Source: Okeania sp.
GTDB lineage: Bacteria; Cyanobacteriota; Cyanobacteriia; Cyanobacteriales; Microcoleaceae
Reading direction: 5' to 3'
Assembly: GCF_035285525.1 (NCBI RefSeq)
Contig: NZ_JAYKGW010000090.1
Span: 36,087-68,086, forward strand
Length of the DNA: 32,000 bases
Shown: positions 3,313-32,000 of the stretch, one piece after another
How positions within the stretch are numbered: the first letter of the stretch is position 1
How the letters are laid out: each line of letters opens with the position of its first letter
The notes under the pieces: model-generated
Seen by the model: only the letters and a program-made list of their open reading frames with translations
The model's database searches: none
Told to the model about the DNA's origin: nothing
Made by a program: the position numbers and the translations under genes

Positions 3313-3518
3313 CAGGACTTACACCAAGCCACCAAAAAATCGGGTTTATCAAGGACTTTTCTAGTTTTAGCCACAAGACTGTAGCCATACAGCGCTTTTC
3401 ACTCTCGATGAACCATATCGTCATAAGCAAAATCTTGTAGGGACGCCCTTATGCAACGTCCCTACTGTGGTTTACTGATATGAAAACTGCTGTAAACCCG
3501 GTTTCTGTGTAAGTCCTG
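3313..3518. repeat. MITE-like element (~206 bp) with terminal inverted repeats caggacttacac / gtgtaagtcctg and an internal gtagggacg...cgtccctac hairpin (3437-3465)
   Basis: The inverted termini are at 3313-3324 and 3507-3518, with inner arms aatcgggttt / aaacccggttt. The element fills the gap between the convergent patatin and GDSL genes. The same termini recur at 7211, 7241, 26530 and 26815. Confidence 0.65.
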
Positions 3519-12640: not shown

Positions 12641-13540
12641 ATGGCAACCTATTTAAAATCTAAAAATTTAGAAATTGATATTAGTTCTAAATTGCAAACA
12701 AATCCAAACATTCCCTATATTAATTCACGCTCTATTAAAGGTGCAGGAATTGGATTACGTTCTGTACATTATCAATATATTCTTAGTCAAAAACCCAAAA
12801 TAAATTGGTTTGAAGTTTTATCAGATAACTATCTTTGTGCAGGTGGTTTACCACTATTTAATTTAGAAAAAATTCGTCAAAATTATCCAGTTACTCTACA
12901 TGGAGTAGGAATGTCTCTGGGTTCAACAGACCCATTAAATTTAGATTATTTAACTAGATTAAAAAAATTAGCAGCAAAAGTTGAACCAGATTTAATTTCC
13001 GATCATTTATCTTGGATATCTGTTAATGGTCACTATCTTAATGATTTAATTCCTTTGGTTTATACAGAAGAGGTAATGGATTTTGTGGCATCTAGAATTT
13101 TGCAAGTACAAGAATTTTTAGGCAGACAAATTTTGATTGAAAATCCCTCCCCGTATTTAACTTTTACAGATTCAACTATGTCAGAATGGGAGTTTATTGA
13201 AGGATTACTTAAAACAGCAGATTGTTATTTACTTTTAGATGTAAATAATCTTTATGTCAATGCCATAAATAATAAAATTGACCCCCTACAATATTTAGAT
13301 AGTATTCCTCCGAATAGAGTTAAACAAATTCATTTAGCAGGTTACGAAGCAAAAGAAAATTATCTATTAGATACCCACGGTTATCCTGTACATTCTCCAG
13401 TTTGGGAATTGTATAAAGAAGCATTAACTAGGTTCGGTGCTGTACCAACTTTAATAGAATGGGATACTAATATTCCCTCTTTTGAAGTATTAATGGCAGA
13501 AGCAAATAAAGCTGAAAAATTATTAGAAAATATAAAGTAA
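12641..13540 (+). CDS. bufB: DUF692 / MNIO (multinuclear non-heme iron oxidase) family RiPP-modifying enzyme, BufB-like
   Basis: DUF692-like motifs include GAGIGLRSVHY, WFEVLSDNY, VTLHGVGMSLGS, ISDHLSW, ILIENPS and IHLAGY. The gene sits between the DUF2282 and DUF2063 genes. Confidence 0.85.
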   Translation: MATYLKSKNLEIDISSKLQTNPNIPYINSRSIKGAGIGLRSVHYQYILSQKPKINWFEVLSDNYLCAGGLPLFNLEKIRQNYPVTLHGVGMSLGSTDPLNLDYLTRLKKLAAKVEPDLISDHLSWISVNGHYLNDLIPLVYTEEVMDFVASRILQVQEFLGRQILIENPSPYLTFTDSTMSEWEFIEGLLKTADCYLLLDVNNLYVNAINNKIDPLQYLDSIPPNRVKQIHLAGYEAKENYLLDTHGYPVHSPVWELYKEALTRFGAVPTLIEWDTNIPSFEVLMAEANKAEKLLENIK

Positions 13541-14337
13541 TGGAAGCGATAACTCTACAAAATTTATTTCTACAAGCTGTTTTGGAAAAAGATAGTTTTA
13601 GTATAGAAAAATTAAGTCAACATATTAAAGCACCGAATAATTTAACACCTGCCGAAAGTTTGGCAATTTACCACAATAATGTTGTGGGAAATTTAAGTAA
13701 TACATTAGTCTCAATTTATCCTGTTTGTTGTCAGTTATTAGGTGAAAAATTTTTTAATGCTACGGGATTAAAATTTATTGAAAAGTTTCCTTGTTTATCA
13801 CCAGACTTAGGAGATTATGGGGAAGAGTTTGCAGATTTTTTGGCTAATTTTGAACCTGTAAAAGATTTACCATATTTGTCAGATGTAGCCCGTTTAGAAT
13901 GGCATTGGCATCGTATTTTTGCTGGTGAAAATACAAATGGTTTAGATTTCCAAACTTTAGGAGAAATTCCTCAAGAAAAATGGGGGGAATTGATTTTTTA
14001 TTTACCAAAAAATAGTGTTTTATTAGAGTCTATCTATCCTATTCATAGAATTTGGCAAGTTAATCAATCTGATTATCAAGGGGATGAAGTAGTTAGTTTA
14101 GATGAAGGTGGAGTAAAAATATTTTTGTGGCGACAAGGTTATGATATGCGAATTGATTTACCTAAAGATGATGAGTGGGAATTATTAACAGTTTTTCAAG
14201 GAAATTATCCAGTTGAAATTATCTGTGAAAAATTAGTTGATGTTGAATCTGAAGTGGATGTTGGTTTGTTACTGCCATTGTTTGTGCAACGAGGTTGGAT
14301 TACTAATTTTTCTATAGTAGGGGTGGGTTTTAACTAG
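13540..14337 (+). CDS. bufC: DUF2063 family protein (BufC-like partner of MNIO)
   Basis: The start overlaps the bufB stop (TAATG), suggesting translational coupling. DUF2063-like motifs are YHNNVVGNLSNTL and FEPVKDLPYLSDVARLEWHWHRIF. The last 7 codons and the stop lie inside the 83-bp tandem repeat. Confidence 0.8.
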   Translation: MEAITLQNLFLQAVLEKDSFSIEKLSQHIKAPNNLTPAESLAIYHNNVVGNLSNTLVSIYPVCCQLLGEKFFNATGLKFIEKFPCLSPDLGDYGEEFADFLANFEPVKDLPYLSDVARLEWHWHRIFAGENTNGLDFQTLGEIPQEKWGELIFYLPKNSVLLESIYPIHRIWQVNQSDYQGDEVVSLDEGGVKIFLWRQGYDMRIDLPKDDEWELLTVFQGNYPVEIICEKLVDVESEVDVGLLLPLFVQRGWITNFSIVGVGFN

Positions 14338-14798: not shown

Positions 14799-16814
14799 AT
14801 GAAAGAAATCCTTTACTTAGAAGTACCAACGCCAGATACGAAAACTGTTTGTCAATGGCTACAATCTCAATTTCAACCTGGTTTTGGCCAAAAAAATATA
14901 ACTCCAGATGGCTTTATTCTCAAACTTCCTGAAGACCCTACTCAGGAAATATCTGTCTTTTTATGGTCATTACAACGAACTACCTATCTGAAAGTATTTG
15001 CTGAAGGAAATATATCTTCAATACAGCAAAAATTTACCTCAAATTTAACTAACAATTTACGAAAAGAATTTCCTCTAAACTATCCAGAACCTCCCCAAAT
15101 TGATCTATCTAATCAGTCAATTTTTACAGCTTTAGCATCTGATTATCCCTTGACAGTTAAATACTTTCAAAAAATGCCTAAAGGAGAGTATTATCTCAAC
15201 CGTTTATATTGGTGGGAAAAACGTTGGCGAGAATCAGTTAAAAATCCTCAAAAACCTAAACAGGTGCTTTGGAAAAAAGAGTCAGAAACTAATAATAATT
15301 CAGTTGAATATGACTTAATTTATGTTGGTGGCGCTCTGGGAATAGTTCATGCAGCAGTCATGGCAAGATTGGGATATAAAGTATTATTATTAGAACGTTT
15401 ACGTTTCGGTACAATGAATCGAGAATGGAATATTTCTCGCTCCGAAATTCAAGGTTTAATTGATTTAGGTTTATTTACAAATACAGAAGTAGAAAACTTA
15501 ATTGCCAGAGAATATAAAGATGGATTTAATAATTTTTTTGATGCTAATAATCCGGATTTTTGTAAAGCAGAAATTCTCCATACTCCCACAGTTTTAAATT
15601 TGGCATTAGATTCAGAAAAATTATTAACTTTATGTGGAAATAAACTCCTAGAAGCTGGTGGAAAAATCGTCGATGAAACAGAATTTATTAAAGCTGATAT
15701 TGAACCAGAAAAAGTAGTAGTTTACACTCAAAATCTATCTACCAAAACTGAACAAATTTTCTCTGGTCGTTTGTTAATAGATGCTATGGGTACTGCTTCT
15801 CCTATCGCTTGGCAATTAAATGGAAAACGAGCTTTCGATAGTGTTTGTCCCACAGTCGGAGCTGTAATAGATGGTGGATTTGAACCAGGTGTTTGGGATT
15901 CAAATTATGGAGATGTTCTCAATAGTCATGGAGATATTTCTCGCGGGAGACAATTAATTTGGGAGTTATTTCCTGGTAAAGATAATGAGTTAACAATTTA
16001 TCTATTTCATTATCATCAAGTTCATCCAGAAAACCCTGGTTCTCTGTTAGAAATGTATGAAGATTTTTTCACTATTTTACCAGAATATCGACGCTGTGAT
16101 CTGGATAAATTAGTATGGAAAAAGCCAACATTTGGTTATATTCCTGGGCATTTTAGTATTAAAGGTAGCGATCGCCAAGTTGCTTTTGACCGTCTAGTTT
16201 GTATTGGTGATGCTGCTTCTCTCCAGTCTCCCTTAGTATTTACTGGTTTTGGTTCTTTAGTGAGAAATTTACCTCGTTTAACTGAACTTTTAGATACTGC
16301 TTTAAAATATGATTTACTCAGTGCCAATAACTTAAATAAAATTCGTGCTTATCAAAGCAATATTGCCATTACTTGGTTATTTTCTAAAGGTATGATGGTT
16401 CCTACTGGTAAGTTTTTACCTCCCCAAAAAATCAATTCTATTTTGAATACATTCTTTGGCTTATTAGCAGATTCTCCCCCAGAAGTAGCAGATACTTTTA
16501 TTAAAGATAGGGCTGATTGGTGGACTTTTACAAAACTAGCTCTCAAAGCAGCCAGAATCAATCCTTATCTTTTATTCTGGATTCTAGACTTTATTAATTT
16601 CCAGGAAATATTACTGTGGATAACCAGTTATATTAATTTCACTTTGTTTAGTTTAATAAGTTGGTTATTCGGATGGTTCCCTAGTTTTGCTCGTTCGATT
16701 CAACCTTGGTTAGAACCTCGTTTTCCTGGTTTATGGTTTTGGATATTAGCTAATAGTTATGCTTTAACTTATAATGTCGGTCAACCACAGATGAATTTCC
16801 AATTACAAAAGTAA
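14799..16814 (+). CDS. FAD-dependent oxidoreductase, CruA/CruP-type lycopene cyclase-like, with a hydrophobic C-terminus
   Basis: After a ~170-aa N-terminal extension comes the Rossmann dinucleotide motif YDLIYVGGALGIVHAAVMARLGYKVLLLER. The CIGDAASLQSPLVFTGFGS motif is recalled from CruA-type cyclases. The C-terminal segments are likely membrane-spanning. The specific function is uncertain. Confidence 0.5.
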   Translation: MKEILYLEVPTPDTKTVCQWLQSQFQPGFGQKNITPDGFILKLPEDPTQEISVFLWSLQRTTYLKVFAEGNISSIQQKFTSNLTNNLRKEFPLNYPEPPQIDLSNQSIFTALASDYPLTVKYFQKMPKGEYYLNRLYWWEKRWRESVKNPQKPKQVLWKKESETNNNSVEYDLIYVGGALGIVHAAVMARLGYKVLLLERLRFGTMNREWNISRSEIQGLIDLGLFTNTEVENLIAREYKDGFNNFFDANNPDFCKAEILHTPTVLNLALDSEKLLTLCGNKLLEAGGKIVDETEFIKADIEPEKVVVYTQNLSTKTEQIFSGRLLIDAMGTASPIAWQLNGKRAFDSVCPTVGAVIDGGFEPGVWDSNYGDVLNSHGDISRGRQLIWELFPGKDNELTIYLFHYHQVHPENPGSLLEMYEDFFTILPEYRRCDLDKLVWKKPTFGYIPGHFSIKGSDRQVAFDRLVCIGDAASLQSPLVFTGFGSLVRNLPRLTELLDTALKYDLLSANNLNKIRAYQSNIAITWLFSKGMMVPTGKFLPPQKINSILNTFFGLLADSPPEVADTFIKDRADWWTFTKLALKAARINPYLLFWILDFINFQEILLWITSYINFTLFSLISWLFGWFPSFARSIQPWLEPRFPGLWFWILANSYALTYNVGQPQMNFQLQK

Positions 16815-16868
16815 AGAAAGAAGAAAGAAGAAAGAAGGCTTTAGTTATCTAGGAGAGAAGGAAGAAGG

Positions 16869-16893
16869 AAAGAGCGAATGTAATTCGCTCTTT
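16869..16893 (+). terminator. Hairpin (11-bp stem, 3-nt loop) downstream of the CruA-like gene
   Basis: The sequence is aaagagcgaat gta attcgctcttt. There is only a short T-run, so terminator function is inferred. Confidence 0.45.
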
Positions 16894-16896
16894 CAT

Positions 16897-16959
16897 TATC
16901 AATTATCAATTATCAATTATCAATTATCAATTATCAATTATCAATTATTAATTATTCAT
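16897..16959. repeat. Heptanucleotide tandem repeat (TATCAAT) x7 plus 2 degenerate units, STRR-like
   Basis: Seven perfect units run from 16897 to 16945, followed by tattaat and tattcat. Single ttatcaatta motifs recur at ~18017 and ~21842, at the other unit edges of the cassette region. Confidence 0.95.
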
Positions 16960-16967
16960 TGAAAAAG

Positions 16968-17047
16968 GCGATCGCTCCCGATCAAAACCAGATTTAGGGA
17001 AAGCCAGAAAGCAGATTTTTTTTCAAAAAACCGGGTTTCTTAAACAA
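16968..17047 (+). repeat. Element P copy 1 (HIP1, then caaaaccagatttagggaaagcc, then a degenerate palindrome)
   Basis: gcgatcgctcccgatcaaaaccagatttagggaaagccagaaagcagattttttttcaaaaaaccgggtttct. It abuts the stop of gene B1. Confidence 0.85.
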
Positions 17048-17500
17048 TTAAATCGGAGCAGTTACTAACTCTTTCTCTACTATTTCTGTTGCTTCTGGAG
17101 GTTTTTCTGCTTCTATATCCATGAGTGCTTTTATCCTTTTAAATAAATCGACTTCTGCCGGTTCTTTGTCTGTTAATTTTTCGTAAAAATAGGGGTCATT
17201 TAACCAGTGGGGAAAAGCTATTTCTAATAAACCATTTTCCCAGAGTTTAAAACGCCAGTATTTTGATACTCGATCATCGACTATCTCAAATAATGGGGCA
17301 CAATGTTTCTGAGGATAATAGATAAAATTGTCATCGCAAATGTAGTACCAAAACTTTCCTTCTGCTTGATCGATAGCATAGACAATATATTCTTTACCTA
17401 CTGTTAATCTAAAGAGGGTTTCTGTGGTTCGATTAACAGCTGGATCGAGATAATTTTCTGGAAGAGATGCGCCAGTGTTGGCAATACAACGAATTTTCAT
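17048..17500 (-). CDS. Hypothetical acidic 150-aa protein B1 (downstream gene of the duplicated two-gene module)
   Basis: I chose the ATG at 17500 (MKIRCIANTGASLPE...) because an AAGGA lies ~10 nt upstream and the paralogue B2 starts at the same residue. The track ORF (191 aa) extends upstream into gene A1. B1 is 100/150 identical to B2 by manual alignment. I do not recognise the family. Confidence 0.7.
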   Translation of the reverse strand: MKIRCIANTGASLPENYLDPAVNRTTETLFRLTVGKEYIVYAIDQAEGKFWYYICDDNFIYYPQKHCAPLFEIVDDRVSKYWRFKLWENGLLEIAFPHWLNDPYFYEKLTDKEPAEVDLFKRIKALMDIEAEKPPEATEIVEKELVTAPI

Positions 17501-17513
17501 GGGTTTATTTTCC

Positions 17514-17822
17514 TTATTGATTTCTTGGTGCTGCTTTGGGATATTCTCGTTTGAATTTAAACTCAACGTCTTGAGCAGTTTTGCGGTTTCTGTACCAGTG
17601 GACTTGTACCGCTGCTCCATCAAGTATTAAACTATTCGTACTTGACATTTTAACCCAGTCTCCTGGTTCGCCGCCATAATTTTCGACGAGTCGGGGAGAA
17701 CATCTCAAAGGTTTTAATGGCGTTCCTTGAATTTCTATGGCTATCCCAGCCTTAGCCTGTTCTAAAAGCAGTTGCTCTTCTAAGTTATTGGGAGTTTCAT
17801 CGGGAATCGGGCCAGTTGTCAC
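17514..17822 (-). CDS. Hypothetical 102-aa protein A1 (upstream gene of the module; GTG start, basic C-terminus ending VQVHWYRNRKTAQDVEFKFKREYPK)
   Basis: The frame is intact, with a GTG start and no clear SD. A conserved TATAAT lies ~45 nt upstream. The stop is 13 nt before the B1 ATG. The paralogue A2 is disrupted. I do not recognise the family. Confidence 0.55.
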   Translation of the reverse strand: MTTGPIPDETPNNLEEQLLLEQAKAGIAIEIQGTPLKPLRCSPRLVENYGGEPGDWVKMSSTNSLILDGAAVQVHWYRNRKTAQDVEFKFKREYPKAAPRNQ

Positions 17823-17875
17823 AGTGTTGTTTTTTTTGCTTGGTAAAAAAGGTTGATTCTAATTATAAAATAAAA

Positions 17876-17953
17876 GCGATCGCTCCTTATCAAAAGCAGG
17901 TTTAAGGAAAGCCAGAAACCCGGTTTTTCCGAAAAACCGGGTTTCTCAAAGGG
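17876..17953 (+). repeat. Element P copy 2
   Basis: gcgatcgctccttatcaaaagcaggtttaaggaaagcc followed by the palindrome agaaacccggtttttccgaaaaaccgggtttct (17914-17946). Confidence 0.9.
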
Positions 17954-18031
17954 CTGGGTTGACATAAAATTAATAGAAACCTGTAGGAGTTTATGGTCAT
18001 TAACCCCCACTCTTTCATTATCAATTATCCA

Positions 18032-18793
18032 TTAAAAAGATACCCAAGATTTAACATCATCAAAACTCCAAGGCGAAGGCGGATTCTTATTGTAGTCAAT
18101 AAAATATTCGTATCCGAGTTGCTCGTATAACTCAGATACTAATTGCTGTAAATCTAATATCGGTTCGATATCTGTTGGCAAAAGGGGAAAAGGGAAACTG
18201 GGAAGGCGATCGCCTACGTTAAAACTGTACAAATCTGGGGTGGGGCGAGTATTACCACGACTAACTAATATACGATAGTGTTTTGATTTGCTATTGTGGA
18301 AAACTGGCATGGCAGAGCCACCTCGTAATAAATCTATTTCTACTAAGTGAGTCATACTTTCTAAGATTTGTTGTCGTTTGGCTAGATACTTCTGGTGACC
18401 TTCTCCTGTTTTATTAGCAGGGGAGAGAACTTCTACAACCGCGACTACTTCTTTTGTGGCTGTATCTTTGACTTCAATGTAGGATTGCCGGACTTCTTCT
18501 CGTAGGGGAATGGCTACTTTCACGGGTTTGACTGAGAGTTTTTGGGCAGTAATGGTTGCTGCCAGCGTAGTTTTTGATTCTCGATTATTTTGTACGCTAA
18601 CGTCTGGTCTACCGATAGTAATGGAGGTTGAGTTGCCGATTTTATAAACCCACTTGTCAGTGACGACTCGGTATTTGGGAGCGAGCGGTGGAACCAGGTT
18701 TCTAGCTATGGCAGCAACCAGTTGATTGTGGAAGTCAGACCAATATTCAGGTTGTTCGAGATAAGGATTCATTCCGGGAAATGGATTGGGCAT
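18032..18793 (-). CDS. DUF4058 family protein (Uma2/PD-(D/E)xK restriction-endonuclease-like fold)
   Basis: I start it at MPNPFPGMNPYLEQPEYWSDFHNQLV, the typical DUF4058 N-terminus. It also carries EVLSPANK and LVEIDLLRGG motifs. The 37 extra residues in the track ORF (MFKKPGFLEKTGFL...) are read-through of element P. Confidence 0.85.
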   Translation of the reverse strand: MPNPFPGMNPYLEQPEYWSDFHNQLVAAIARNLVPPLAPKYRVVTDKWVYKIGNSTSITIGRPDVSVQNNRESKTTLAATITAQKLSVKPVKVAIPLREEVRQSYIEVKDTATKEVVAVVEVLSPANKTGEGHQKYLAKRQQILESMTHLVEIDLLRGGSAMPVFHNSKSKHYRILVSRGNTRPTPDLYSFNVGDRLPSFPFPLLPTDIEPILDLQQLVSELYEQLGYEYFIDYNKNPPSPWSFDDVKSWVSF

Positions 18794-18839
18794 GGTTTTT
18801 CTGAGGTAGTTGGTTTTATTTAATGTAGCAGAATGGGTG

Positions 18840-18907
18840 GCGATCGCTTTCTGAAGACTATCCAGAAACCCGGTTTTTTCCAAAAAACCGGGTTTCTTAA
18901 ACAATTA
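18840..18907 (+). repeat. Element P copy 3
   Basis: HIP1 at 18840-18847 and the palindrome agaaacccggttttttccaaaaaaccgggtttct at 18864-18897. The linker differs from the other copies. Confidence 0.85.
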
Positions 18908-18940
18908 AGCGGGAGTTGTTGCTAACTTTTTCTCTAACGA
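18905..18940 (-). pseudogene. 12-codon 3' remnant of a third B-type gene
   Basis: The reverse complement reads SLEKKLATTPA-stop, matching the B1 (EKELVTAPI) and B2 (DKELATAPA) C-termini. It holds the same position relative to element P. Upstream homology ends where the UPF0175 promoter region begins. Confidence 0.6.
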
Positions 18941-18992
18941 TATGATAACATAATTTTGAGAAAATAAATTCACTTCTTGATTGGAGGACAAA

Positions 18993-19244
18993 ATGCAAAT
19001 TACTTTGGAAATTCCTGATGAGATGCTTCAAGGAAAAGGATTAAACGAAGGAGAATGGTTGCAGGAAATAGCGATCGCTCTATTTCAAAAAGAATTAATA
19101 ACTCTCGCTCGTGCTAGCAGGATTGCCCGAATGCACCAAATGGATTTTCAAAAGCTAATTGCCAGTCGCGGTATCTGCATTCATTACGATGTTGAAGAGT
19201 TTGAACAAGACATTCGGCATTTAGAAGAGCGGGGTTGGTTATGA
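18993..19244 (+). CDS. UPF0175 family antitoxin-like protein
   Basis: The ATG at 18993 is preceded by GGAGGA. The product MQITLEIPDE...EIAIALFQKELITLARASRIARMHQMDFQKLIASRGI fits the UPF0175 pattern. The gene overlaps the next gene by ATGA. Confidence 0.8.
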   Translation: MQITLEIPDEMLQGKGLNEGEWLQEIAIALFQKELITLARASRIARMHQMDFQKLIASRGICIHYDVEEFEQDIRHLEERGWL

Positions 19245-19639
19245 TTATTGTTAGCGATACTTCACCTTTATGTAATCTACAACTGGTTAATTCTCTCTGG
19301 TTATTGCGAGAACTTTATGGTATAGTTATAATTCCTCATGTTGTGGCTGAGGAACTTGCTGCTGCTAGCAATCTGGATATTCAAAATATTTGCCACCTAG
19401 AATGGATACAAATCCGAACTCTTAGTTTAACAAAGGTTGCTGAAAGCCTTCAGAGGAAGCGGGGATTATATCCAGGAGAAGCCAAGGCCATAGCTTTAGC
19501 AATCGAGCTTAAGGCAGACGATCTGCTTATTGATGAGCGACTCGGAAGACGAGAAGCTTTGCAACTCGGATTATCTGTTATTGGTGTATTGGGGATTTTA
19601 GTCGCTGCCAAACAAAAAGGTTTAATTCCAATGGTATAA
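19241..19639 (+). CDS. DUF3368 (PIN-like) toxin-like protein, shortened by an in-frame TAA
   Basis: The product reads MIIVSDTSPL...PGEAKAIALAIELKADDLLIDERLGRREA...IGVLGILVAAKQKGLIP. After the TAA at 19637-19639 the same frame continues PVMDTLIEEAGFRVSDRLYQRIIT to a TGA at 19712-19714. That stretch looks like the normal family C-terminus. Confidence 0.75.
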   Translation: MIIVSDTSPLCNLQLVNSLWLLRELYGIVIIPHVVAEELAAASNLDIQNICHLEWIQIRTLSLTKVAESLQRKRGLYPGEAKAIALAIELKADDLLIDERLGRREALQLGLSVIGVLGILVAAKQKGLIPMV

Positions 19640-19746
19640 CCTGTTATGGATACCCTTATTGAGGAGGCTGGTTTTAGAGTAAGTGATCGTTTATACCAGC
19701 GAATTATTACTTGATCTAGTGAGTGAAGTGTTAAAAAGGGAAGGTT

Positions 19747-19828
19747 GCGATCGCTCCACATCAAAACCAGATTTAGGGAAAGCCAGAAACCAGGTTTTTT
19801 TGAAAAAACTAGGTTTCTTAAACAATTA
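19747..19828 (+). repeat. Element P copy 4
   Basis: gcgatcgctccacatcaaaaccagatttagggaaagcc followed by agaaaccaggtttttttgaaaaaactaggtttct (19785-19818). It abuts the stop of gene B2. Confidence 0.9.
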
Positions 19829-20278
19829 AGCGGGAGCAGTTGCTAACTCTTTATCCTCTGTTTCTGTTGCTTCTGGCGGTTTTTCTGCTTCTCTATCCAT
19901 GAGGTATCTTATCCTTTTAAACAAATCGACTTCTGCCGGTTCTTGGTCTGTTAATTTATCATAGAAATAGGGAATGGTAAACCATTGAGAAAACGCTACT
20001 CTTAACAAGCCGTTTGGCCTTAAATTAAAGCGCCAATATTTAGATAGTCGATCGTCTACTACCTCAAACAACGGGGCGGGATTTTGCATCGGGTAATACA
20101 TATAATGGTCGTCAGCAATGTAGTACCAAATTTGTCCTTTCCATTCATAAAAAGCATAAACAACATACTCTTTGCCAATAGTTAATCCAAATTCTAGGTC
20201 TCTAGTGTAACCTCCATTAGGATCGAGATCATGCTCTGGCAGAGATGCGCCAGTGTTAGCGATACAACGAATTTTCAT
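19826..20278 (-). CDS. Hypothetical 150-aa protein B2 (paralogue of B1)
   Basis: It has the same length and the same MKIRCIANTGASLPE start as B1. It is 67 percent identical to B1, with divergence concentrated in residues ~16-67 and ~85-102. The frame is intact. Confidence 0.7.
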   Translation of the reverse strand: MKIRCIANTGASLPEHDLDPNGGYTRDLEFGLTIGKEYVVYAFYEWKGQIWYYIADDHYMYYPMQNPAPLFEVVDDRLSKYWRFNLRPNGLLRVAFSQWFTIPYFYDKLTDQEPAEVDLFKRIRYLMDREAEKPPEATETEDKELATAPA

Positions 20279-20291
20279 GGGTTGATGTTCC

Positions 20292-20599
20292 TTATTGATT
20301 TTTAGGTGCTGTTTTGGGATATTCCCGTTTAAATTTGAACTCAACGTTTTGAGCTGTTTTGTTGTTTCTATACCAATGGACTTGTACGGAAGCTCCATCA
20401 ATTAATACAGACTGTTTAGTTGTCATTTGATCCCAGTCTTCGAGAGAACCGCCATAGTTGGCCACAAGTTGCGAAGCGTATCTTAGCGGTTCTTTACTGC
20501 CATTAAAGATGGTCTTACTTTGCCCTTTTTGGCATCTTCTAGAAGTAGTTGCTATTCTAAGTTATTGGGTGTTTCATCGGGAATCGGGCCTGTTGTCAC
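20292..20599 (-). pseudogene. A2, disrupted paralogue of A1 (in-frame TAG plus a 1-nt frameshift)
   Basis: The GTG at 20599 gives TTGPIPDETPNNLE, then TAG at 20552-20554, then QLLLEDAKKG. After a frame change it reads QSKTIFNGSKEPLRYASQLVANYGGSLEDWDQMTTKQSVLIDGASVQVHWYRNNKTAQNVEFKFKREYPKTAPKNQ-stop. It is 308 nt long versus 309 nt for A1. Confidence 0.75.
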
Positions 20600-20650
20600 A
20601 GTGTTGTTTTTTGCTTGGTAAAAAAGGTTGATTCTAATTATAAAATAAAA

Positions 20651-20728
20651 GCGATCACTCTTGATAAAAACCAAACTTAGGGAAAGCCAGAAACCCGGTT
20701 TTTCGGAAAAACCGGGTTTCTCAAAGGG
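20651..20728 (+). repeat. Element P copy 5 (HIP1 degenerated to gcgatcac)
   Basis: gcgatcactcttgataaaaaccaaacttagggaaagcc followed by agaaacccggtttttcggaaaaaccgggtttct (20689-20721). Confidence 0.9.
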
Positions 20729-20741
20729 CATAATTAACATT

Positions 20742-21771
20742 AGAGTTGTTGGGAAATAACTTAGGTTAGAAAAAAACTCAAACGAAAACTGATAGATTTC
20801 CTGAGTAATTTGATTACTTATGCTGCCATCAGATATAAGTTCCACGGGTACAGTTGCTGTTAGCATTAATTTGTCATCAAAATCATACTTATGATTACGA
20901 TAAATCTGACTGACAACTCCATAACGTTTCATACCCTTGATATGCGTTTTCACATACTACCCTTGATTGGCTCAATTTCCGATTTTCTAATTTTTGTTGC
21001 TCACTTAACTCTCCCCCTTTTGGTTTTTTATGGGGAATGCGGATATTTTCATACTGATGCGTGGATACCTTGGAAACCACTGTCTACTTGAATCGGAATC
21101 TCTACAGGTATATTTCAAGCGCAATTTCTCCTGATCATGGAACTTCTTATCATGTAGCTTTCCTTCTCGTGCCTGGCTCAATACCAGTACTTTCTGGTTT
21201 TGATTGACTGCAACTAAATGTTTACGAGTGTGACGCTTTTTTTTTCCCGAATAATTCAGTTTTGGTTTTTCTGAGTCAGTTAGTCGTTGCACTGGCCGCT
21301 GAAGTGCCATCCATTATCACTCGTTTTACTCCAGGGAAACGTTCTATGAATCCTTGGACACTGTTAACTTGACGCTCTGGTAGCACCTTTTTTTCTTCCA
21401 GAGCTGCTTCTAATGCTAGGGGTTGTCAGCGATGAACCCAATAATGTGCCTGACTACGGTCGATATCAAATAAGATACCAGCTCAATCAAAAGTTGGGTA
21501 ACACTTAAAGTAGAATAGAATGTCAAACAATTTGTCTTGATTGGTGCGTAAACGAGCCTTACGGCCTCCTCCAATAGAGCGTTGACGAGGTTTTGAGTGC
21601 AATGTTTGCTCATACATTTGAGCAAAGGACTCCAACAAAGATTCAAATGCTTTACGGTTTAATCCCGTTAATCCTCTGAGTAACCTGTCTGGTTTTAAGG
21701 CTCGTTCAATATTTAGCATTTTTATGGCCAATTTCTTCTTGAATCATTTTACCTTATTTCCCAACAACTCT
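20742..21771 (-). mobile_element. Decayed 1030-bp insertion sequence, IS5-family-like (PIF/Harbinger-type DDE_Tnp_4 transposase), with perfect 18-bp terminal inverted repeats and a 3-bp ATT target duplication
   Basis: The TIR agagttgttgggaaataa at 20742-20759 is the reverse complement of 21754-21771. ATT flanks both ends (20739-41 and 21772-74). Transposase fragments lie on the minus strand: LLRGLTGLNRKAFESL...GGGRKARL...FYFKCYPTFD, two in-frame TGAs, then YSGKKKRHTRKH, YENIRIPHKKPKGGELSEQQKLENRKLSQSRVVCENA and KRYGVVSQIYRN. These sit in at least 3 different frames. Confidence 0.8.
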
Positions 21772-21852
21772 ATTAAATGAATAGAAAACCTGTAGGGGGG
21801 TTTCATGTCGCGCAGCAAAATGCTATTCGCCCTTAACCTTTTATTATCAATT

Positions 21853-25858: not shown

Positions 25859-26278
25859 ATCACAGTAGAAGCAACATCCAACGGTCAAACCGTTACTGAT
25901 ACTTTCACTGTCTCTGTAACTGCTAAACCTGACTTGGTAGTACAAAGTACATCAGTTCCATCTTTTGCAAGAGCAGGTAGCTCTATAAGTATCAGTGGCT
26001 ATGTAAAAAACATAGGTAGTAGTAGCGCAGGTAGTAGCTATGTCAAATATTATCTGTCTGATGACACAACCTTAAGTTCCTCTGACACATACTTAGGTTC
26101 AGATTATGTTACTAGCCTCGGCTCAGGTCAGTCTAGCTATGAGTATGAATCATTAACTATACCGTCAACCACAAGCCGTGGAACGAAATATGTGTTGTTG
26201 GCGGCTGATGCTAACAACACGGTGGCAGAAAGTAATGAAAACAATAATGTTGCTCATGGTTCAATTTACATCTATTAA
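25859..26278 (+). pseudogene. 5'-truncated C-terminal fragment of a surface protein: end of an Ig-like domain plus one CARDB domain
   Basis: The frame reads ITVEATSNGQTVTDTFTVSVTAKPDLVVQSTSVP...NIGSSSAG...YYLSDDTTLSSSD..LG...NNTVAESNENNN, which is the CARDB pattern. No ATG or GTG occurs in this frame before a TTG at 25934. Upstream, the frame runs into the antisense of the RTX-type gene. Confidence 0.65.
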
Positions 26279-26529: not shown

Positions 26530-26632
26530 AGGACTTACACGGGAGGAACCCGGTTTCTCCCAGAAACCGGGTTTCTGGGTTCAGTTCAAAGGACGATATT
26601 TTGTTGAGAAACCAAGTTTCTGCGTAAGTCCT
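26530..26632. repeat. MITE-like element (~103 bp) with aggacttacac / gcgtaagtcct termini enclosing a P-type palindrome (26546-26575)
   Basis: aggacttacacgggaggaacccggtttctcccagaaaccgggtttctggg...gagaaaccaagtttctgcgtaagtcct. Confidence 0.7.
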
Positions 26633-26814: not shown

Positions 26815-26898
26815 AGGACTTACCCATGAGGAAGGAAATTTCAAGGCTTTCGCTCCTGGTGAGTAATGACAGAAATACGTTGCGTGTGTGTAAGTCCT
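26815..26898. repeat. MITE-like element (~84 bp) with aggacttac / gtaagtcct termini
   Basis: The termini are at 26815-26823 and 26890-26898. It lies immediately upstream of, or overlapping, candidate starts of the giant gene. Confidence 0.55.
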
Positions 26899-26922
26899 AA
26901 AAATATTAAATTATTTGGAACA

Positions 26923-29900
26923 ATGAGCATGCTAGAACCAGATTCAGGATATATTTTCCCACTTCCACCGGAACAGGAACTACAAAATTTGGGGGAAATA
27001 CCCATCGTTGGTGTCGAACCGAATGGGGAAAACCTCTCGCCTTTGTTGGAGGAACCTATTGATTCACCTTTAGTAACTTCAGTTGATGTTGATATAGTTA
27101 GGGAAGAGTCAACTGTCAATGAGAATACCGATATTCTTACGGGTGTAACAGAAGAGGACTCTAATATTTCTTCGATTCAAGTTAGGAAGACCACTAAGAC
27201 AGACCCAGGGAATAATGCTAAAAATGCCCTTAACTTGGGCAAAGTGGGAGATAAACCAATAAAAAATAATGACGATATTGGTTTTAACTCTGGTGGGACT
27301 AAGGACAAAAATGACTACTACAAATTTACTCTCACAGGGAAAGAAAACGAGGTTAGTGTAGTAGTTGATGGTCTCAAGGATGATGCGAACTTACAATTAC
27401 TGGATACAAATGGTAAGGATGTTTTGTCTAAGTCTACACAAAAAGGTAAGAAGACAGAGACTATTGATACGGAGTTGGATAAAGGTACTTATTATTTGCG
27501 AGTTTACCCTCAAGGTAGTGCTAAAACTAAGTATGGCCTCAGTGTTAGTGCGGAGGAAATACTCCAAGACCCTGATAGCAAACCCAGTGGGGCGACTAAT
27601 TTAGGTCCATTGGGTAAGAAGAAAAAGAAAGTCAACGACGAGATAGGTTTTAGGCAAAATGGTACTAGGGATAATAGCGATTTTTATCAATTTAGTTTAA
27701 CTGAAGATTTCAATAACCTAAATATTGTCTTGGATGGTCTGAAAGATAATGCTAATATCAATCTGTTTGATGAAAGTCAAGATATTATCGACCGGTCTCG
27801 GGCAAAAGGCAAGAGTAAGGAAATAATTGACGAGGTATTAGAACCGGGTACTTATTTCTTGGAGGTGGAACCCCAGGGAAGTGCTAAGACTAAATATCAG
27901 TTGAGCTTTGATTCCAATAAAATTGATGACCCCGATGGCAATCGAAATCGGGCACAAGAGATAAAAGTTGGTAAAAAACCAGAGAAAATTAGGGATGAAG
28001 TAGGGTTTGAGGTTGGAGGCCAACGAGACCAAAAAGATTACTATCAGTTTACTTTGAACAAGGATAGCGAGGTTAATCTGAGTCTGGACGGTCTGAAGCA
28101 AAATTTGGATTTCCAACTGTTAGGTGATAAGGGCAATCTGCTTTACAGTTCTACTAATAAAAGTACAGATTCTGGAGTAATTGAAACTATTTTAGATAAG
28201 GGCGAATATTATGTTTTGGTTAAACCTGTGGGTAGCGATCGCTCGGAATATACTCTTTCTCTAGTTGCGGATAGTGATATTGAAGACCCGGACGCTAAGT
28301 TACCAGGAAATAATCTGGGTAAACTCAAAGCAGAACCTATTACGAAAAGAGACAAGATTGGTTTTAAGGAAAAGGGTTTTATCGATCAGAGCGACTTTTG
28401 GGGATTTGAGTTAACTCAGGAAACTGACTTAGATATTAGTTTAGATAGGTTGACTCAAAATGCTGATTTAGAACTATATGATGAAGATGGGACTACCCTA
28501 ATTTATAGTTCTAAAGAAAAGGGCAAAGCTAAAGAACTAATTAGTACCATTTTGGATAAGGGTACTTATTATATCAAAGTTAAACCCAATAGTGGCAGTC
28601 GGACTAACTATGAATTAAGTTTGACTGGTAATACTAAAATTGCTGAAAAAGATGATGCTTTGCCAGGAACACCTTTGGGAGAGTTGGGAGAAAAACCAGT
28701 TACTAAGAAAGATAAGGTAGGTTTTAAACCTTCTGGTAATGTCCGGGATTTTGCAGATTTTTACAATTTCAGTTTGGCTGAACAAAGCGGAGTTAATATT
28801 ACTCTAGATGGTTTGAGTGGCAATGCTACCTTAAGTTTGCTGAGAACTGACGGCCGAGAAATTGAAGTTTCTGACAATAAAGGTAGTAAAGATGAAGCTA
28901 TTAACGAAGTTTTAAGTGCTGGAAATTATTACATTGGAGTTAAAGCGGAAGGTAATGCTAAGACTAAATATGATTTGGGAGTAACTGCTAATGTCCTGAA
29001 GGATGACATTAATAGTCGCAAGAATGCCAAAGAATTAGGTAATCTCAATTCCCAAGACCAGGTGACGGAAAAAGACCGGATAGGTTTTTCCCAAGGTGGT
29101 CTTCGAGATCAAGTAGATTACTACAGTTTTAATCTGACTGAAGCGAGCGATGTGATTTTGACTTTGGACGGTTTGGATCAAGATGCGAATTTGTTATTGC
29201 TGGATGAAAATGACCAAATAGCTCAGTCTATTCTTAAAGGTATTAAAGCTGAAAAAATTGAGAAGAAGTTAAAAAAAGGAACTTATTATGCAGCTATTGT
29301 CCCGGTTGGTGGCGCTAAAACTGATTACCAATTAAGTTTAGACGCTATACAGAAAACTGTAGATTTGTCAAGTTTGAAATTTAACGTCCTGGATGCCCAA
29401 GATGGATTGAAGGCCGGGGAAAAGGTCAAGGTTAATTATCAAGTCAATAATATCGGTAACACTAAAGCTGATACTTTTAACGTTGGGTTCTATTTGTCCA
29501 CAGATGAGGGCATAGACACCGGGGACTTCCTTTTGGATACTGTGGAGATTAAGTCCCTTTCCGGTGGCCAGAATACTAAAAAATTGGCCAAGCAATTGAC
29601 TCTGCCTGATGGTGGGGACAAGTTCTGGCAGGATGCTGGGGACTATTATTTGGGCGTAATAGTCGATAGCGACAATGCGATCGCGGAAGATAACGAACTG
29701 AATAATACTAGCAGTCAGAGCGTTGGTGTTGAGATTTCTAGCGATTTGAAGTTGAGCGGTTTTGATGTGCAACAGGAAACCGTTAACCCTGGGCAAAAGT
29801 TTGATGCTAAGGTAACGGTTGAAAATATTGGTGGTAAAATTAATGATTTCCAAATAGGGTATTATCTGTCTTTGGATAATGAAATTACTACCAGCGATAC

Positions 29901-32000
29901 CTTGATTGGTTCTGAGGAAATCGCATCTTTGGGAAGTAACGCAACTACTACCATCAGCAAGCAGTTTACTTTACCAGAGAATAGCATTAATGGTCAGAAA
30001 AAATACTTTGTGGGAGCGATCGCTGATTACCAAGATGCTTTTGTGGAAGTAAACGAAACTAATAATATTAGTCAAGAAAGAGTTTCTCTGAGTCCGGTGC
30101 CAGAAGATAATGCAGGTGACACATTCAAGAAAGCTCGAAATGTTGGTGTTGTTGGCGATACAACTCAGAAGTTTTCTGACTGGGTGGGTAATTTCTATGG
30201 AGTTTCCGAAGATACCAGTGATTATTACCAGATAGAAATTGATGGCAGAAGCAATCTCAACCTGACTCTTGATGGTTTAGATATCAACGCTAACCTATAT
30301 TTGTACAACAGCGAGGAACGGTTAGAAGAACAATCTGTTAATACGGAAAATAAAAAAGAAGAAATTTCTCGTAAATTATTACCAGGCACTTATTACGTTG
30401 AAGTTAGAGACAATGACACTGGCAATACAACCTATAACTTAGAAATGTCAGCATCACCACTAGAATACCCAGTGCCACAAATTGCTGGTTGGAACGGGGA
30501 TACTGCTCTAGATATTGGTGCAGTTGGAACGACTCCTATCAAGAAAACTGAGTATGTGGGCAACCTCCACGGGTTTAAAGATGACCTGAATGATTTCTAC
30601 AAGTTCCAAGTAGAAGGTGACAGCACTATTCAAATTGATTTGACAGGTTTGATAGGAAATGCCGATCTATATCTTTATGACACGGAAAGTAGTGGTAGTA
30701 TTGCCAGATCGGAGACACTGCAAAAAGTTGATGAAAGTATTGTCAAGAATTTAACTCCAGGAACTTATTTTCTTGAAGTTCAAAGTGTTAACGATGCTAA
30801 AACCACCTACGACTTGCAGGTAGTAGGAACGCCATTACCAAACAATGGTGCTGGAGGAAATCCTGATCGAGCCTTGGATTTAGGAACTCTGACTACACCC
30901 AAGACTGTCAATGACTGGGTAGGAAATATTGATGACAAAGATTATTACAAATTTAACGTCAGTGAAAACAGCACAGTTGAGATAGAGCTGACAGGAATGA
31001 GCGATGATGCTAATCTGGAATTATTCAACAATAAGAAAAAGTCACTCGCGTCTTCTTCCCAAACTGACAATAAAGATGATGGAATTATTACCAATTTATC
31101 TCCTGGTGACTATTTCTTAGAAGTGGATAATTATTATGGTAGTGTAGGTACTCCTTACAACTTACAACTAACAACTACTTCCCGGACAACGGATATAGCT
31201 GGTAACAATTTTGATGCAGCATTTGACCTGGGTGCATTGGGAACCGTAAACCAGACCGAGTGGGTAGGCACTTTTGACGACAGCGACTATTACAAGTTTA
31301 CCATTGCTGGAGATAGCGCCGTTAAACTAGGTCTGACAGGGATGAATGGTAATGCTAATATCACCCTTTACGACAATGAGAAAGAGCGGATTACGAGTTC
31401 TAGTAATTCTGGTAATGCTGATGAACTGATAGATCGTAACTTAGAACCTGGAGATTACTTCCTCAAAGTTGATTTCTCTGGTAGTGGTGCAGATTATAAT
31501 CTCACTGCATCCGCAACTCCAATTGTTGACGCAGGCGGAAATACTAAAGAAACAGCAGGGGATATGGGTGATATTAGTGCGACGAAAACTTTTAGTAACT
31601 GGGTAGGTAACGTCGATCAGAGCGATTGGTTTAAATTTACTATTACTGGAGATAGCGCTGTTAACCTAGGACTAACAGGAATGACTGCCAATGGAAATTT
31701 GTACTTGTATGATGAGACCAAAGAAAACTCAATTGCCAGTTCCACTAAATCTAGTGATACTGATGAAGTTCTAGCAGTGAACCTAAACCCCGGTACTTAC
31801 TACGTCCAAGTTTATGGCGAAAGTGGTAACACAAACTACAGCTTAAGTGCCACAGCAACTGCAATTCCTGACGCTGGCGGAAATACTAAAGAAACAGCAG
31901 GGGATATGGGTGATATTAGTGCGACGAAAACCTTTAGTAACTGGGTAGGTGGGATTGATAATAGTGATTGGTTTACATTTACTATCGCCGGAGATAGCGC
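26923..32000 (+). CDS. Giant repetitive surface/adhesin-like protein (more than 1690 aa, 3' end beyond the window): 6 type-A PPC-like repeats, 2 CARDB domains, at least 6 type-B PPC-like repeats
   Basis: It is missing from the ORF track because no stop occurs before the window end. I translated the frame starting at 27121 through 30600 (each 60-nt line begins on a codon boundary) and read the rest to 32000 by eye. I found no stop after the TGA at 26860. Type-A units (~27190-29345) share IGFxxGGxRDxxDYYxFxL...LDGLxxxAxLxLLD...GTYYxxVxPxGxAKTxYxLS. The CARDB domains (~29350-30100) contain NIGNTKAD...YLSTDEGIDTGD. Type-B units (30110 onward) share WVGNxDxxDYYKF...LTGMxxxANLxLY...PGxYxxxV...YNL. 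The start is uncertain (ATG at 26866, 26923 or 26929). Confidence 0.85.
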   Translation, partial: MSMLEPDSGYIFPLPPEQELQNLGEIPIVGVEPNGENLSPLLEEPIDSPLVTSVDVDIVREESTVNENTDILTGVTEEDSNISSIQVRKTTKTDPGNNAKNALNLGKVGDKPIKNNDDIGFNSGGTKDKNDYYKFTLTGKENEVSVVVDGLKDDANLQLLDTNGKDVLSKSTQKGKKTETIDTELDKGTYYLRVYPQGSAKTKYGLSVSAEEILQDPDSKPSGATNLGPLGKKKKKVNDEIGFRQNGTRDNSDFYQFSLTEDFNNLNIVLDGLKDNANINLFDESQDIIDRSRAKGKSKEIIDEVLEPGTYFLEVEPQGSAKTKYQLSFDSNKIDDPDGNRNRAQEIKVGKKPEKIRDEVGFEVGGQRDQKDYYQFTLNKDSEVNLSLDGLKQNLDFQLLGDKGNLLYSSTNKSTDSGVIETILDKGEYYVLVKPVGSDRSEYTLSLVADSDIEDPDAKLPGNNLGKLKAEPITKRDKIGFKEKGFIDQSDFWGFELTQETDLDISLDRLTQNADLELYDEDGTTLIYSSKEKGKAKELISTILDKGTYYIKVKPNSGSRTNYELSLTGNTKIAEKDDALPGTPLGELGEKPVTKKDKVGFKPSGNVRDFADFYNFSLAEQSGVNITLDGLSGNATLSLLRTDGREIEVSDNKGSKDEAINEVLSAGNYYIGVKAEGNAKTKYDLGVTANVLKDDINSRKNAKELGNLNSQDQVTEKDRIGFSQGGLRDQVDYYSFNLTEASDVILTLDGLDQDANLLLLDENDQIAQSILKGIKAEKIEKKLKKGTYYAAIVPVGGAKTDYQLSLDAIQKTVDLSSLKFNVLDAQDGLKAGEKVKVNYQVNNIGNTKADTFNVGFYLSTDEGIDTGDFLLDTVEIKSLSGGQNTKKLAKQLTLPDGGDKFWQDAGDYYLGVIVDSDNAIAEDNELNNTSSQSVGVEISSDLKLSGFDVQQETVNPGQKFDAKVTVENIGGKINDFQIGYYLSLDNEITTSDTLIGSEEIASLGSNATTTISKQFTLPENSINGQKKYFVGAIADYQDAFVEVNETNNISQERVSLSPVPEDNAGDTFKKARNVGVVGDTTQKFSDWVGNFYGVSEDTSDYYQIEIDGRSNLNLTLDGLDINANLYLYNSEERLEEQSVNTENKKEEISRKLLPGTYYVEVRDNDTGNTTYNLEMSASPLEYPVPQIAGWNGDTALDIGAVGTTPIKKTEYVGNLHGFKDDLNDFYKFQVEGDSTIQIDLTGLIGNADLYLYDTESSGSIARSETLQKVDESIVKNLTPGTYFLEVQSVNDAKTTYDLQVVGTPLPNNGAGGNPDRALDLGTLTTPKTVNDWVGNIDDKDYYKFNVSENSTVEIELTGMSDDANLELFNNKKKSLASSSQTDNKDDGIITNLSPGDYFLEVDNYYGSVGTPYNLQLTTTSRTTDIAGNNFDAAFDLGALGTVNQTEWVGTFDDSDYYKFTIAGDSAVKLGLTGMNGNANITLYDNEKERITSSSNSGNADELIDRNLEPGDYFLKVDFSGSGADYNLTASATPIVDAGGNTKETAGDMGDISATKTFSNWVGNVDQSDWFKFTITGDSAVNLGLTGMTANGNLYLYDETKENSIASSTKSSDTDEVLAVNLNPGTYYVQVYGESGNTNYSLSATATAIPDAGGNTKETAGDMGDISATKTFSNWVGGIDNSDWFTFTIAGDS

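Follow-up and report, generated by a model that had tools for sequence, protein, structure and literature searches.

A 32,000-nt stretch of DNA from Okeania sp. (contig NZ_JAYKGW010000090.1; the whole stretch is called the window here) contains five direct copies of a structured repeat, P, with small gene modules between them. An earlier sequence-only reading of this DNA had likened the layout to an integron or attC-type cassette array and had named an orphan toxin/immunity array as the other choice. We consider it probable that the P repeats are the ordinary spacer of a multiplied and decaying toxin-domain/immunity module, and not integron-like recombination sites.

The module consists of two minus-strand genes, B (102 aa) and then A (150 aa), with P as the intergenic spacer. 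At least three modules are present: B1-A1, which is intact, B2-A2, in which B2 is a pseudogene, and a third of which the last 37 nt of A remain. A DUF4058 gene, a UPF0175/DUF3368 toxin–antitoxin (TA) pair and an insertion sequence (IS) lie among the modules, and the P copies would have travelled along with the modules. NCBI lists proteins identical to A1 and B1 under Okeania sp., which places the source in the Oscillatoriales and not in the Nostocales, the order to which the earlier reading had looked for relatives.

The repeated unit

A repeat search combined with MAFFT alignment recovered the five starts already reported (16968, 17876, 18840, 19747, and 20651), their single orientation, and their start-to-start distances of 908, 964, 907, and 904 bp. 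In shuffled sequence, 0.00 matches of the full palindrome pattern are expected, and the 11-nt arm AAACCSGGTTT occurs 9 times where 0.03 occurrences are expected. The 40-nt non-palindromic halves of P align mutually with blastn E values of 1e-5 to 1e-12 (1.07-Mb database). Each P is built of three layers: a 33-nt hairpin, a module-specific spacer of ~30 nt, and a site of HIP1, the highly iterated palindrome of cyanobacteria (GCGATCGC; PMC5861425). The parts of the array are given below. Loci from other genomes carry numbers with the prefix L; L130 is a metagenomic locus.

P1: 16968-17040, minus strand; 3' flank of A1, with HIP1 at 16968-16975, a 30-nt spacer, and a degenerate palindrome at 17006-17040.

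A1: 17048-17500, minus strand; presumed immunity protein, 150 aa, intact, with 159 homologues, none of which has a Pfam domain.

B1: 17514-17822, minus strand; 102 aa with a GTG start, the sole intact B of the array, with all invariant residues of the family present.

TATAAT (-10-like) box: 17862-17867, minus strand; 39 nt upstream of the B1 start, with a counterpart at 20637-20642 upstream of B2.

P2: 17876-17946, minus strand; upstream flank of B1, with HIP1, spacer, and a perfect palindrome at 17914-17946.

P3: 18840-18897, minus strand; partial copy, with HIP1 at 18840-18847, a shortened spacer, and a perfect palindrome at 18864-18897.

Remnant of a third A: 18898-18937, minus strand; the last ~12 codons and the stop codon (37 nt of A), with the same 5' breakpoint in L130.

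P4: 19747-19818, minus strand; 3' flank of A2, with HIP1, spacer, and a weakened palindrome at 19785-19818.

A2: 19826-20278, minus strand; putative immunity paralogue, 150 aa, intact, with 67% identity to A1 and 88-89% to the A genes of L003 and L130.

B2 pseudogene: 20292-20612, minus strand; broken by one frameshift and by a nonsense mutation at codon 17.

P5: 20651-20721, minus strand; upstream flank of B2, with a mutated HIP1, spacer, and a perfect palindrome at 20689-20721.

The copies are preserved to different degrees. P2, P3, and P5 have a perfect 15-bp stem (dG -26 to -31 kcal/mol, z about -3.4 to -3.7; for P2, -30.8 kcal/mol and z -3.4). The palindrome of P4 has mismatches inside the stem (z -1.8). 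P1 has lost its left arm and folds at shuffle level (z -0.1), so that the statement that each copy ends in a palindrome of 2x15 nt does not hold for P1. The HIP1 of P5 is mutated to GCGATCAC. In P3, 14 nt and most of the spacer are missing.

The homology does not end with P. In P1, P3, and P4, it extends into the 3' end of A, over the last ~12 codons, and the three copies have the same junction at the A stop codon, TAATTGTTTA|AGAAACC, followed by the same downstream spacer. P2 and P5 have ~130 nt in common on the B side, reaching the first ~24 codons of B, and GCCCTTTG in common on the side opposite B. As the homology between the P copies runs into coding sequence, what is repeated is the whole module, genes and flanks together, and the discrete element of ~80 bp that had been assumed does not hold. 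The period of ~905 bp is the length of this module because 309 + 13 + 453 nt coding are joined to a spacer of ~130 nt.

It had seemed odd that the TA-containing interval (907 bp) is within 3 bp of the A/B intervals. When palindrome centers are measured, the distances are about 906, 950, 922, and 903 bp and the coincidence is gone; we therefore rejected it as meaningful. The near-equality is an artefact of the use of HIP1 as the anchor and of the shortened spacer of P3.

Gene B and the C-termini of polymorphic toxins

Judged from its homologues, B is a free-standing copy of an unnamed polymorphic-toxin C-terminal domain. An exhaustive profile search with B gave 885 proteins. The motif of the domain is [RK]KGPIPDE…NYG.GEWVKM…HWFRN..TG..VEFKFK. 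Proteins of 265-2143 aa have the whole B domain ([RK]KGPIPDE to …VEFKFK) at their very C-terminal end, and they carry RHS_repeat and PT-HINT (P0218), RHS (P0254, P0173), eCIS_core/DUF4157 (P0183, P0161), or PT-TG (P0296). Since B forms the C-termini of RHS, PT-HINT, and eCIS_core proteins, it has the architecture that defines a polymorphic-toxin tip.

The aligned standalone homologues of B, of about 102 aa (95-124 aa), all have their initial Met or Val at the domain boundary, and many further standalone B of ~102 aa are among the wider profile matches. Between modules, the first ~24 codons of B and the upstream flank are ~90% conserved vs ~79% for the rest. Neither B nor A has a match in Pfam, NCBIfam, or PADLOC, and searches of the PDB by sequence profile gave only noise for both. 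We infer that B would be toxic and that A would neutralize it.

Pairing of B with A and decay of B

In every locus fetched by a B or an A match, A is directly downstream of B with a gap of 11-14 nt. These loci are L001 (MAG82), L002 (Okeania SIO3H1), L003, L122/123 (Planktothrix tepida), and L124/125 (Oscillatoria princeps), and, from metagenomes, L126-129 (JGI), L137-139 (ENA), and L130. The order is kept even among remote homologues: downstream of a distant B tip (44% identity), whose N-terminal region is rich in Gly, there is an equally remote relative of A (39% identity, HHalign probability 99.95%).

The A genes are under purifying selection, with ratios of nonsynonymous to synonymous substitution rates (dN/dS) of 0.10-0.33. 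A1 and A2 are paralogues that diverged long ago (dS 0.76); closer orthologues of each exist elsewhere. A broken B stands beside an intact A in module 2 of the window, in L002 (heptamer insertion), and in L003 (frameshift); in L130, both B copies are disrupted and the single full-length A is intact. Extra copies or remnants of A are found in L001 (A-B-A), in the window, and in L130. For the window, this corrects two earlier assignments: A2, which had been taken for a pseudogene, is intact and it is B2 that has decayed, and the supposed B remnant at 18898-18937 is the 3' end of an A gene. The decay of the toxin gene with the protector kept fits the prediction for a toxin–immunity pair, and A as the putative immunity partner of B is supported. 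In this array, the toxin genes decay and purifying selection maintains the immunity genes.

Two of these loci show further details. In L001 (488-2152; MAG82, a tar-biofilm cyanobacterium), the order is DUF3095 – A – B – A, and the first A directly follows the DUF3095 gene, which has no B-like C-terminus; this A may be an orphan immunity gene. In L002 (10105-10135), the tract that breaks B consists of CAGTTAT heptamers and resembles the short tandemly repeated repetitive (STRR) sequences.

A hairpin at the 3' ends of cyanobacterial genes

The palindrome of P is 33 nt long, AGAAACCCGGTTTyT-NNN-ArAAACCGGGTTTCT, and lies 7 nt after the A stop codon. A search with the exact pattern in one genome per GTDB species gave at least 118 stretches that carry it; all figures on the hairpin in this section are for the matches listed. 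The copies have the consensus cAGAAACCCGGTTTyT-NNN-ArAAACCGGGTTTCTg; their flanks are not related to one another. About 83 matches (at least 70%) come from named filamentous cyanobacteria, Microcoleus, Oscillatoria, Scytonema, Rivularia, Stigonema, and Planktothrix among others. The remaining stretches include metagenome-assembled genomes (MAGs), and ~17 are from other phyla. None of the stretches (0) encodes an A or a B gene.

Hairpins are intergenic in 128 of 141 cases, while open reading frames (ORFs) make up 78% of the same DNA. They stand between convergent (47), tandem (52), or, less often, divergent (10) genes, at a median of 38 nt from the stop codon of the upstream gene. The neighboring genes span 170 Pfam families, for example HSP70, DnaB, desaturases, and glucokinase. 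It had been asked whether the element always sits 3' of small genes. The position at gene 3' ends is borne out; a tie to small genes is ruled out, as the neighbors have a median of 256 aa vs 200 aa over all ORFs.

The stem has exactly 15 bp, and pairing ends past the AG…CT ends. The innermost variable pair is C-G in 75 copies and T-A in 45, with Watson-Crick pairing in 90% vs 46% in shuffles; for the outer stem pair, the values are 84% vs 61%. Hence there are two covarying subtypes, with a sequence kept across several cyanobacterial orders. Position and covariation together are the signature of a structural 3'-end element. The design, an A-rich flank, a GC core, and TTTCT, reads the same way on either strand. 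Most likely, the hairpin would act as a bidirectional intrinsic terminator or as a stem-loop that stabilizes 3' ends, and would thereby insulate each module. The family might also be an SDR-like mobile mini-element or a terminator bound by a protein.

Rfam gave nothing at gathering thresholds in the whole window and nothing notable at E <= 1 in 16800-21000, and a literature search with the palindrome sequence found no paper quoting the hairpin. A few copies are present in Planctomycetota and Chloroflexota MAGs. In the window, the hairpin is also located outside the array, at 26544-26576 and 3494-3504.

Spacer, HIP1, and -10 box

The other half of P behaves differently. The 40-nt half (HIP1…ATCAAAACCAGATTTAGGGAAAGCCAG) has 0 matches elsewhere in the 1.07 Mb of palindrome-bearing DNA of the matches listed. 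It is recognizable in the A-to-B spacers of L001 and L003, where …AAATCTnGTTTTGnnnnGGnGCGATCGC is followed by TATAAT and then GTG. Random scattering through intergenic DNA had been put forward as the opposite of a cassette array. The hairpin is dispersed but tied to gene 3' ends, and B–A spacers are the sole place of the 40-nt half.

Homologous spacers may or may not have the palindrome. It is present in the window and in L003, absent or decayed in both L001 spacers, and absent at the P3 site of L130. The L001 spacers keep an apparent decayed half-arm, which points to loss rather than to an empty insertion site. In L003, the palindrome directly abuts HIP1. As HIP1 occurs 23 times in the 32-kb window, its presence within P is not specific to the array. 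P can thus be resolved into a spacer that belongs to the module, a hairpin of generic type, and an octamer that is ubiquitous.

The TATAAT upstream of B is kept in the window, L001, L002, L003, and L130, at about 40-50 nt from the B start. Where a P copy precedes B, the box that follows it would be the promoter of the next module. The free-standing B–A pairs of other genomes have no P.

Rearrangements in a related locus

We scanned metagenomes with a P-specific 19-mer. Six of the 7 matches are chance occurrences in unrelated DNA, and only L130 is homologous, with 82-91% nucleotide identity to the window. On the RTX-downstream side, L130 is orthologous once the IS of the window is removed; its upstream gene looks FG-GAP-like, unlike that of the window, and the outer synteny is uncertain. 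The order in L130 is P, a 5' fragment of B fused to the 37-nt A remnant at the breakpoint seen in the window, HIP1, terminator, heptamer tract, DUF4058, HIP1, B pseudogene, and an A2-like gene. There is neither a TA pair nor a B1-A1 module, and the palindrome is absent from the site orthologous to P3.

The junction between P3 and DUF4058 in the window (18840-18848) equals the L130 sequence (971-1153) minus 175 nt between two HIP1 sites. Within the window, P copies of the P1/P4 type are homologous to those of the P2/P5 type exactly as far as HIP1. The array content thus varies between relatives, as had been asked, and what differs looks like the outcome of deletion at repeats and at HIP1 sites, of an internal deletion in a module, and of the insertion of an IS rather than of cassette exchange. 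The array would change through homologous recombination and deletion between the repeats and at HIP1 sites.

Points against the proposed explanation and alternatives to it

Several points weigh against our explanation. The terminator activity of the hairpin, the toxicity of B, and the protection by A are all inferred. Foldseek searches with AlphaFold models of B (pLDDT 82) and A (pLDDT 74) gave no PDB match at E <= 0.001, and a BECR-type RNase fold for B is no more than a guess. Past the GC core of the hairpin there is only the short T-run TTTCT, and a simple scan for the terminator consensus flags 1 of the 5 P copies. P1 and P4 are 95% identical over 40 nt although dS between A1 and A2 is 0.76, which suggests gene conversion or a constraint of another kind on the spacers. 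In Planktothrix (L122/L123) and in L137-139, related hairpin elements stand on either side of B–A or TA blocks; such bracketing is expected of operon-end terminators and equally of a module-delimiting element. Finally, the source genome is represented by the 32-kb window.

The hairpin might be a very small mobile repeat of the type of the small dispersed repeats (SDR) or the repetitive extragenic palindromes (REP), inserted independently after each module, maybe at HIP1-adjacent sites. This would agree with its presence or absence at orthologous positions (P3 vs L130; L003 vs L001), with the conservation of its sequence in two covarying subtypes across several cyanobacterial orders, and with its direct contact with HIP1 in L003. 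PMC5861425 cites Elhai et al. (2008) on SDR, the small dispersed repeats of Nostocaceae, and has Elhai et al. reporting HIP1 as a possible insertion site for SDR5. However, independent insertions would not give P1, P3, and P4 an identical junction at the A stop codon together with the downstream spacer, nor P2 and P5 ~130 nt of B-side flank together with the shared sequence on the opposite side. As the P copies share their flanks, they were duplicated together with them inside the array, and the decayed half-arm of L001 suggests loss. We regard independent insertion as unlikely. It bears on the origin of the hairpin and leaves the nature of the array unchanged.

The hairpin and HIP1 repeats could also be substrates of a recombination system encoded elsewhere that moves toxin–immunity and TA modules without a canonical integrase or attC. 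We give this only a slight chance. The observations that point to it are the presence or absence of the palindrome at orthologous sites, the HIP1 breakpoints, the spacers that are more alike than the synonymous sites of the adjacent genes, and the hairpins that bracket blocks in Planktothrix and another metagenomic lineage.

A closer parallel to integrons would make P a recombination site that folds as a single strand and at which a recombinase encoded elsewhere shuffles the modules. Such a site would be attC-like or similar to those of rAID-1, reportedly the recombinase-associated immunity-gene arrays of Bacteroidales. The layout agrees with this in that five structured repeats of the same orientation bound small modules and, as sedentary integrons do, the array encloses a TA pair. 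The different content of L130, the palindrome present or absent at orthologous sites, and the related hairpins around B–A or TA blocks in L122/123 and L137-139 can be read in the same way. However, a Pfam scan of the window ORFs of at least 100 aa and of the ORFs running over its edges found no recombinase in 32 kb, only a decayed DDE_Tnp_4 IS, and GTTRRRY is present in 0 of 5 copies on either strand. The sequence-only reading had named the missing R-box and the missing integrase as caveats, and the motif and Pfam scans confirm both. The stems of P2, P3, and P5 are perfect and have no extrahelical bases.

The repeat is not specific to cassettes either. Among the matches listed, the palindrome follows housekeeping genes of 170 Pfam families with no preference for small genes, and the non-palindromic half is restricted to B–A spacers. 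The homology enters coding sequences, which makes the gene module the repeated unit, and the modules are not promoterless, as each B is preceded by a conserved -10 box. One internal deletion, one deletion from HIP1 to HIP1, and the insertion of an IS account for what differs from L130, and B–A pairs in other genomes stand free without P. With no recombinase in the window, no R-box, no bulges, and a repeat that is not cassette-specific, an integron-like or attC-like cassette layout is very improbable.

It is just as improbable that the B modules are silent spare tips for the 1304-aa RTX gene upstream, recombining with it via a shared junction. In favor of it, the array lies directly downstream of this large RTX-repeat gene and is read from the same strand, B belongs to the C-terminal domains of polymorphic toxins, and the 5' part of B and its flank are better conserved (~90%) than the rest (~79%). 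Against it, the RTX protein has neither a B-like domain nor a KGPIPDE junction (HHalign probability 0.2%), its gene ends at its own canonical terminator, the aligned standalone B all start at the same position and have about 102 aa, and lone B–A pairs elsewhere are found among housekeeping genes with no large toxin gene nearby. As the RTX protein lacks a B-like region, the B–A modules are not orphans of the RTX gene. The suggestion of an orphan toxin/immunity array is right in essence, with the reservation that the modules are free-standing, each B with its own start and -10 box.

Locus layout and neighboring genes

On the minus strand, from high to low coordinates, the order is RTX gene, decayed IS5, P5, B2 pseudogene, A2, P4, TA pair (on the opposite strand), A remnant, P3, DUF4058, P2, B1, A1, and P1. 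Beyond P1, a heptamer tract is followed by a convergent CruA-like gene. The further features are as follows.

RTX-type gene: 25856→21942, minus strand; 1304 aa, upstream of the array.

DUF4058 gene: 18032-18796, minus strand; Pfam PF13267 (E 2e-89), interspersed and unrelated to A or B, with an L130 orthologue of 91% nucleotide identity.

UPF0175 antitoxin: 18993-19244, plus strand; Pfam PF03683 (E 3e-21) and PADLOC PDC-S70, convergent with A2.

DUF3368 (PIN-like) toxin: 19235-19713, plus strand; PADLOC PDC-S70 (E 2e-46, profile positions 1-132 of 162).

Decayed IS5-family IS: 20741-21772; a DDE_Tnp_4 fragment that parts the array from the RTX gene.

25-nt direct repeat: 16888-16912 and 18010-18034; 96% identity, flanking the P2-B1-A1-P1 block.

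(ATTATCA)n heptamer tract: 16895-16960; STRR-like, beside P1.

The DUF4058 and UPF0175/DUF3368 genes had been named correctly, as the Pfam and PADLOC matches confirm. The UPF0175 and DUF3368 genes adjoin and match known type II TA families; PDC-S70 is a candidate system of PADLOC. The DUF3368 gene has an in-frame premature TAA at 19637-19639, with 24 further codons still readable; the DUF3368-type toxin is likewise split in L137-L139. The IS5 element ends in perfect inverted repeats of 19 bp (TAGAGTTGTTGGGAAATAA), the duplicated target is the 3-bp AAT, and L130 has the empty site. The 25-nt repeat around P2-B1-A1-P1 hints that this module was inserted or duplicated into the 3' flank of the DUF4058 gene.

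Elsewhere, B–A pairs stand alone among housekeeping genes without a large toxin gene nearby. TA pairs adjoin B–A in several loci: HEPN/MNT in L122, PIN in L124, UPF0175/DUF3368 in L137-139, and AbiEii in L140. Such neighborhoods suggest small TA/defence islets, and the TA pair of the window may be an old neighbor of the B–A module rather than an inserted cassette. Two genomes of the Planktothrix tepida type differ just after A by an insertion of ~612 bp with a 99-aa ORF.

Other genes of the window lie farther from the array. Upstream of the CruA-like gene, at 12641-14337, a gene for an RiPP-modifying enzyme (RiPP, ribosomally synthesized and post-translationally modified peptide) of the MbnB/TglH/ChrH family is followed by a DUF2063 partner, possibly a small RiPP locus. 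At the other end, an ORF of more than 1712 aa (26863-31998, running off the end) has 11 PPC (pre-peptidase C-terminal) domains and CARDB domains, and a separate 114-aa CARDB fragment is found at 25934-26278.

Comparison with known systems and significance

Arrays of orphan C-terminal toxin domains with their immunity genes are reportedly a feature of polymorphic toxins, including the systems of contact-dependent growth inhibition (CDI) and Rhs. The B–A array is similar to them in that its toxin domain is common with the C-termini of RHS, PT-HINT, and eCIS_core proteins and the immunity gene is immediately downstream. Tandem modules, extra immunity copies, and decayed toxin fragments are further common traits, as is a 5' junction region that is better conserved than the toxin core. 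In contrast, B is here a gene of 102 aa that stands free and has a start codon and a -10 box of its own, the locus has no parent full-length toxin since the RTX neighbor is unrelated, and both the toxin and the immunity family are outside Pfam, NCBIfam, and PADLOC. As a toxin–immunity module cluster with orphan immunity genes, the array is of an already known type.

With type II TA systems, B–A has in common that it is a small bicistronic pair, that it recurs beside bona fide TA pairs, that its distribution is patchy, and that the toxin is often pseudogenized. It differs in its order, with the toxin first, in a protector that is larger than the toxin, and in the homology of B to secreted polymorphic-toxin tips and not to known TA toxins.

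An attC site is an imperfect palindrome with R''/L''–L'/R' boxes, a GTTRRRY core, and extrahelical bases, and its cassettes are promoterless. The array resembles sedentary integrons and rAID-1 in its small modules of one orientation between structured repeats, in the embedded TA pair, and in its variable content. Unlike these systems, the window encodes no integrase or recombinase, the repeats have perfect palindromes without an R-box and combine a generic 3'-end hairpin with the spacer of the module itself, and the modules are paralogues of one family rather than diverse cassettes.

With REPs and bacterial interspersed mosaic elements (BIMEs), bidirectional terminators, and SDRs, the hairpin has in common its small size, its dispersal through intergenic DNA, and its concentration just past stop codons and where genes converge, as well as a stem pairing kept by covariation and a polymorphism of presence and absence. 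Unlike REPs, which are usually species-specific, it has one 15-bp stem sequence common to several cyanobacterial orders. It has no Rfam family. HIP1 anchors the P copies, and the rearrangement breakpoints fall at HIP1 sites; with its frequency in the window, it is not peculiar to the array.

The analysis removes an apparent lead to a cyanobacterial integron. It also illustrates that periodic structured repeats may arise when a multiplied module brings along its own terminator-type hairpin and HIP1. The locus gives concrete cases of HIP1 sites at deletion breakpoints, and the 33-nt hairpin, having no Rfam family, is a handy candidate for studies of termination in a phylum without Rho. Also of use are an unannotated domain, taken here as a toxin, and a 150-aa family of putative immunity proteins, which are widespread as free-standing pairs in filamentous cyanobacteria. 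In these multicellular organisms, the B–A pairs may act in kin discrimination or addiction.

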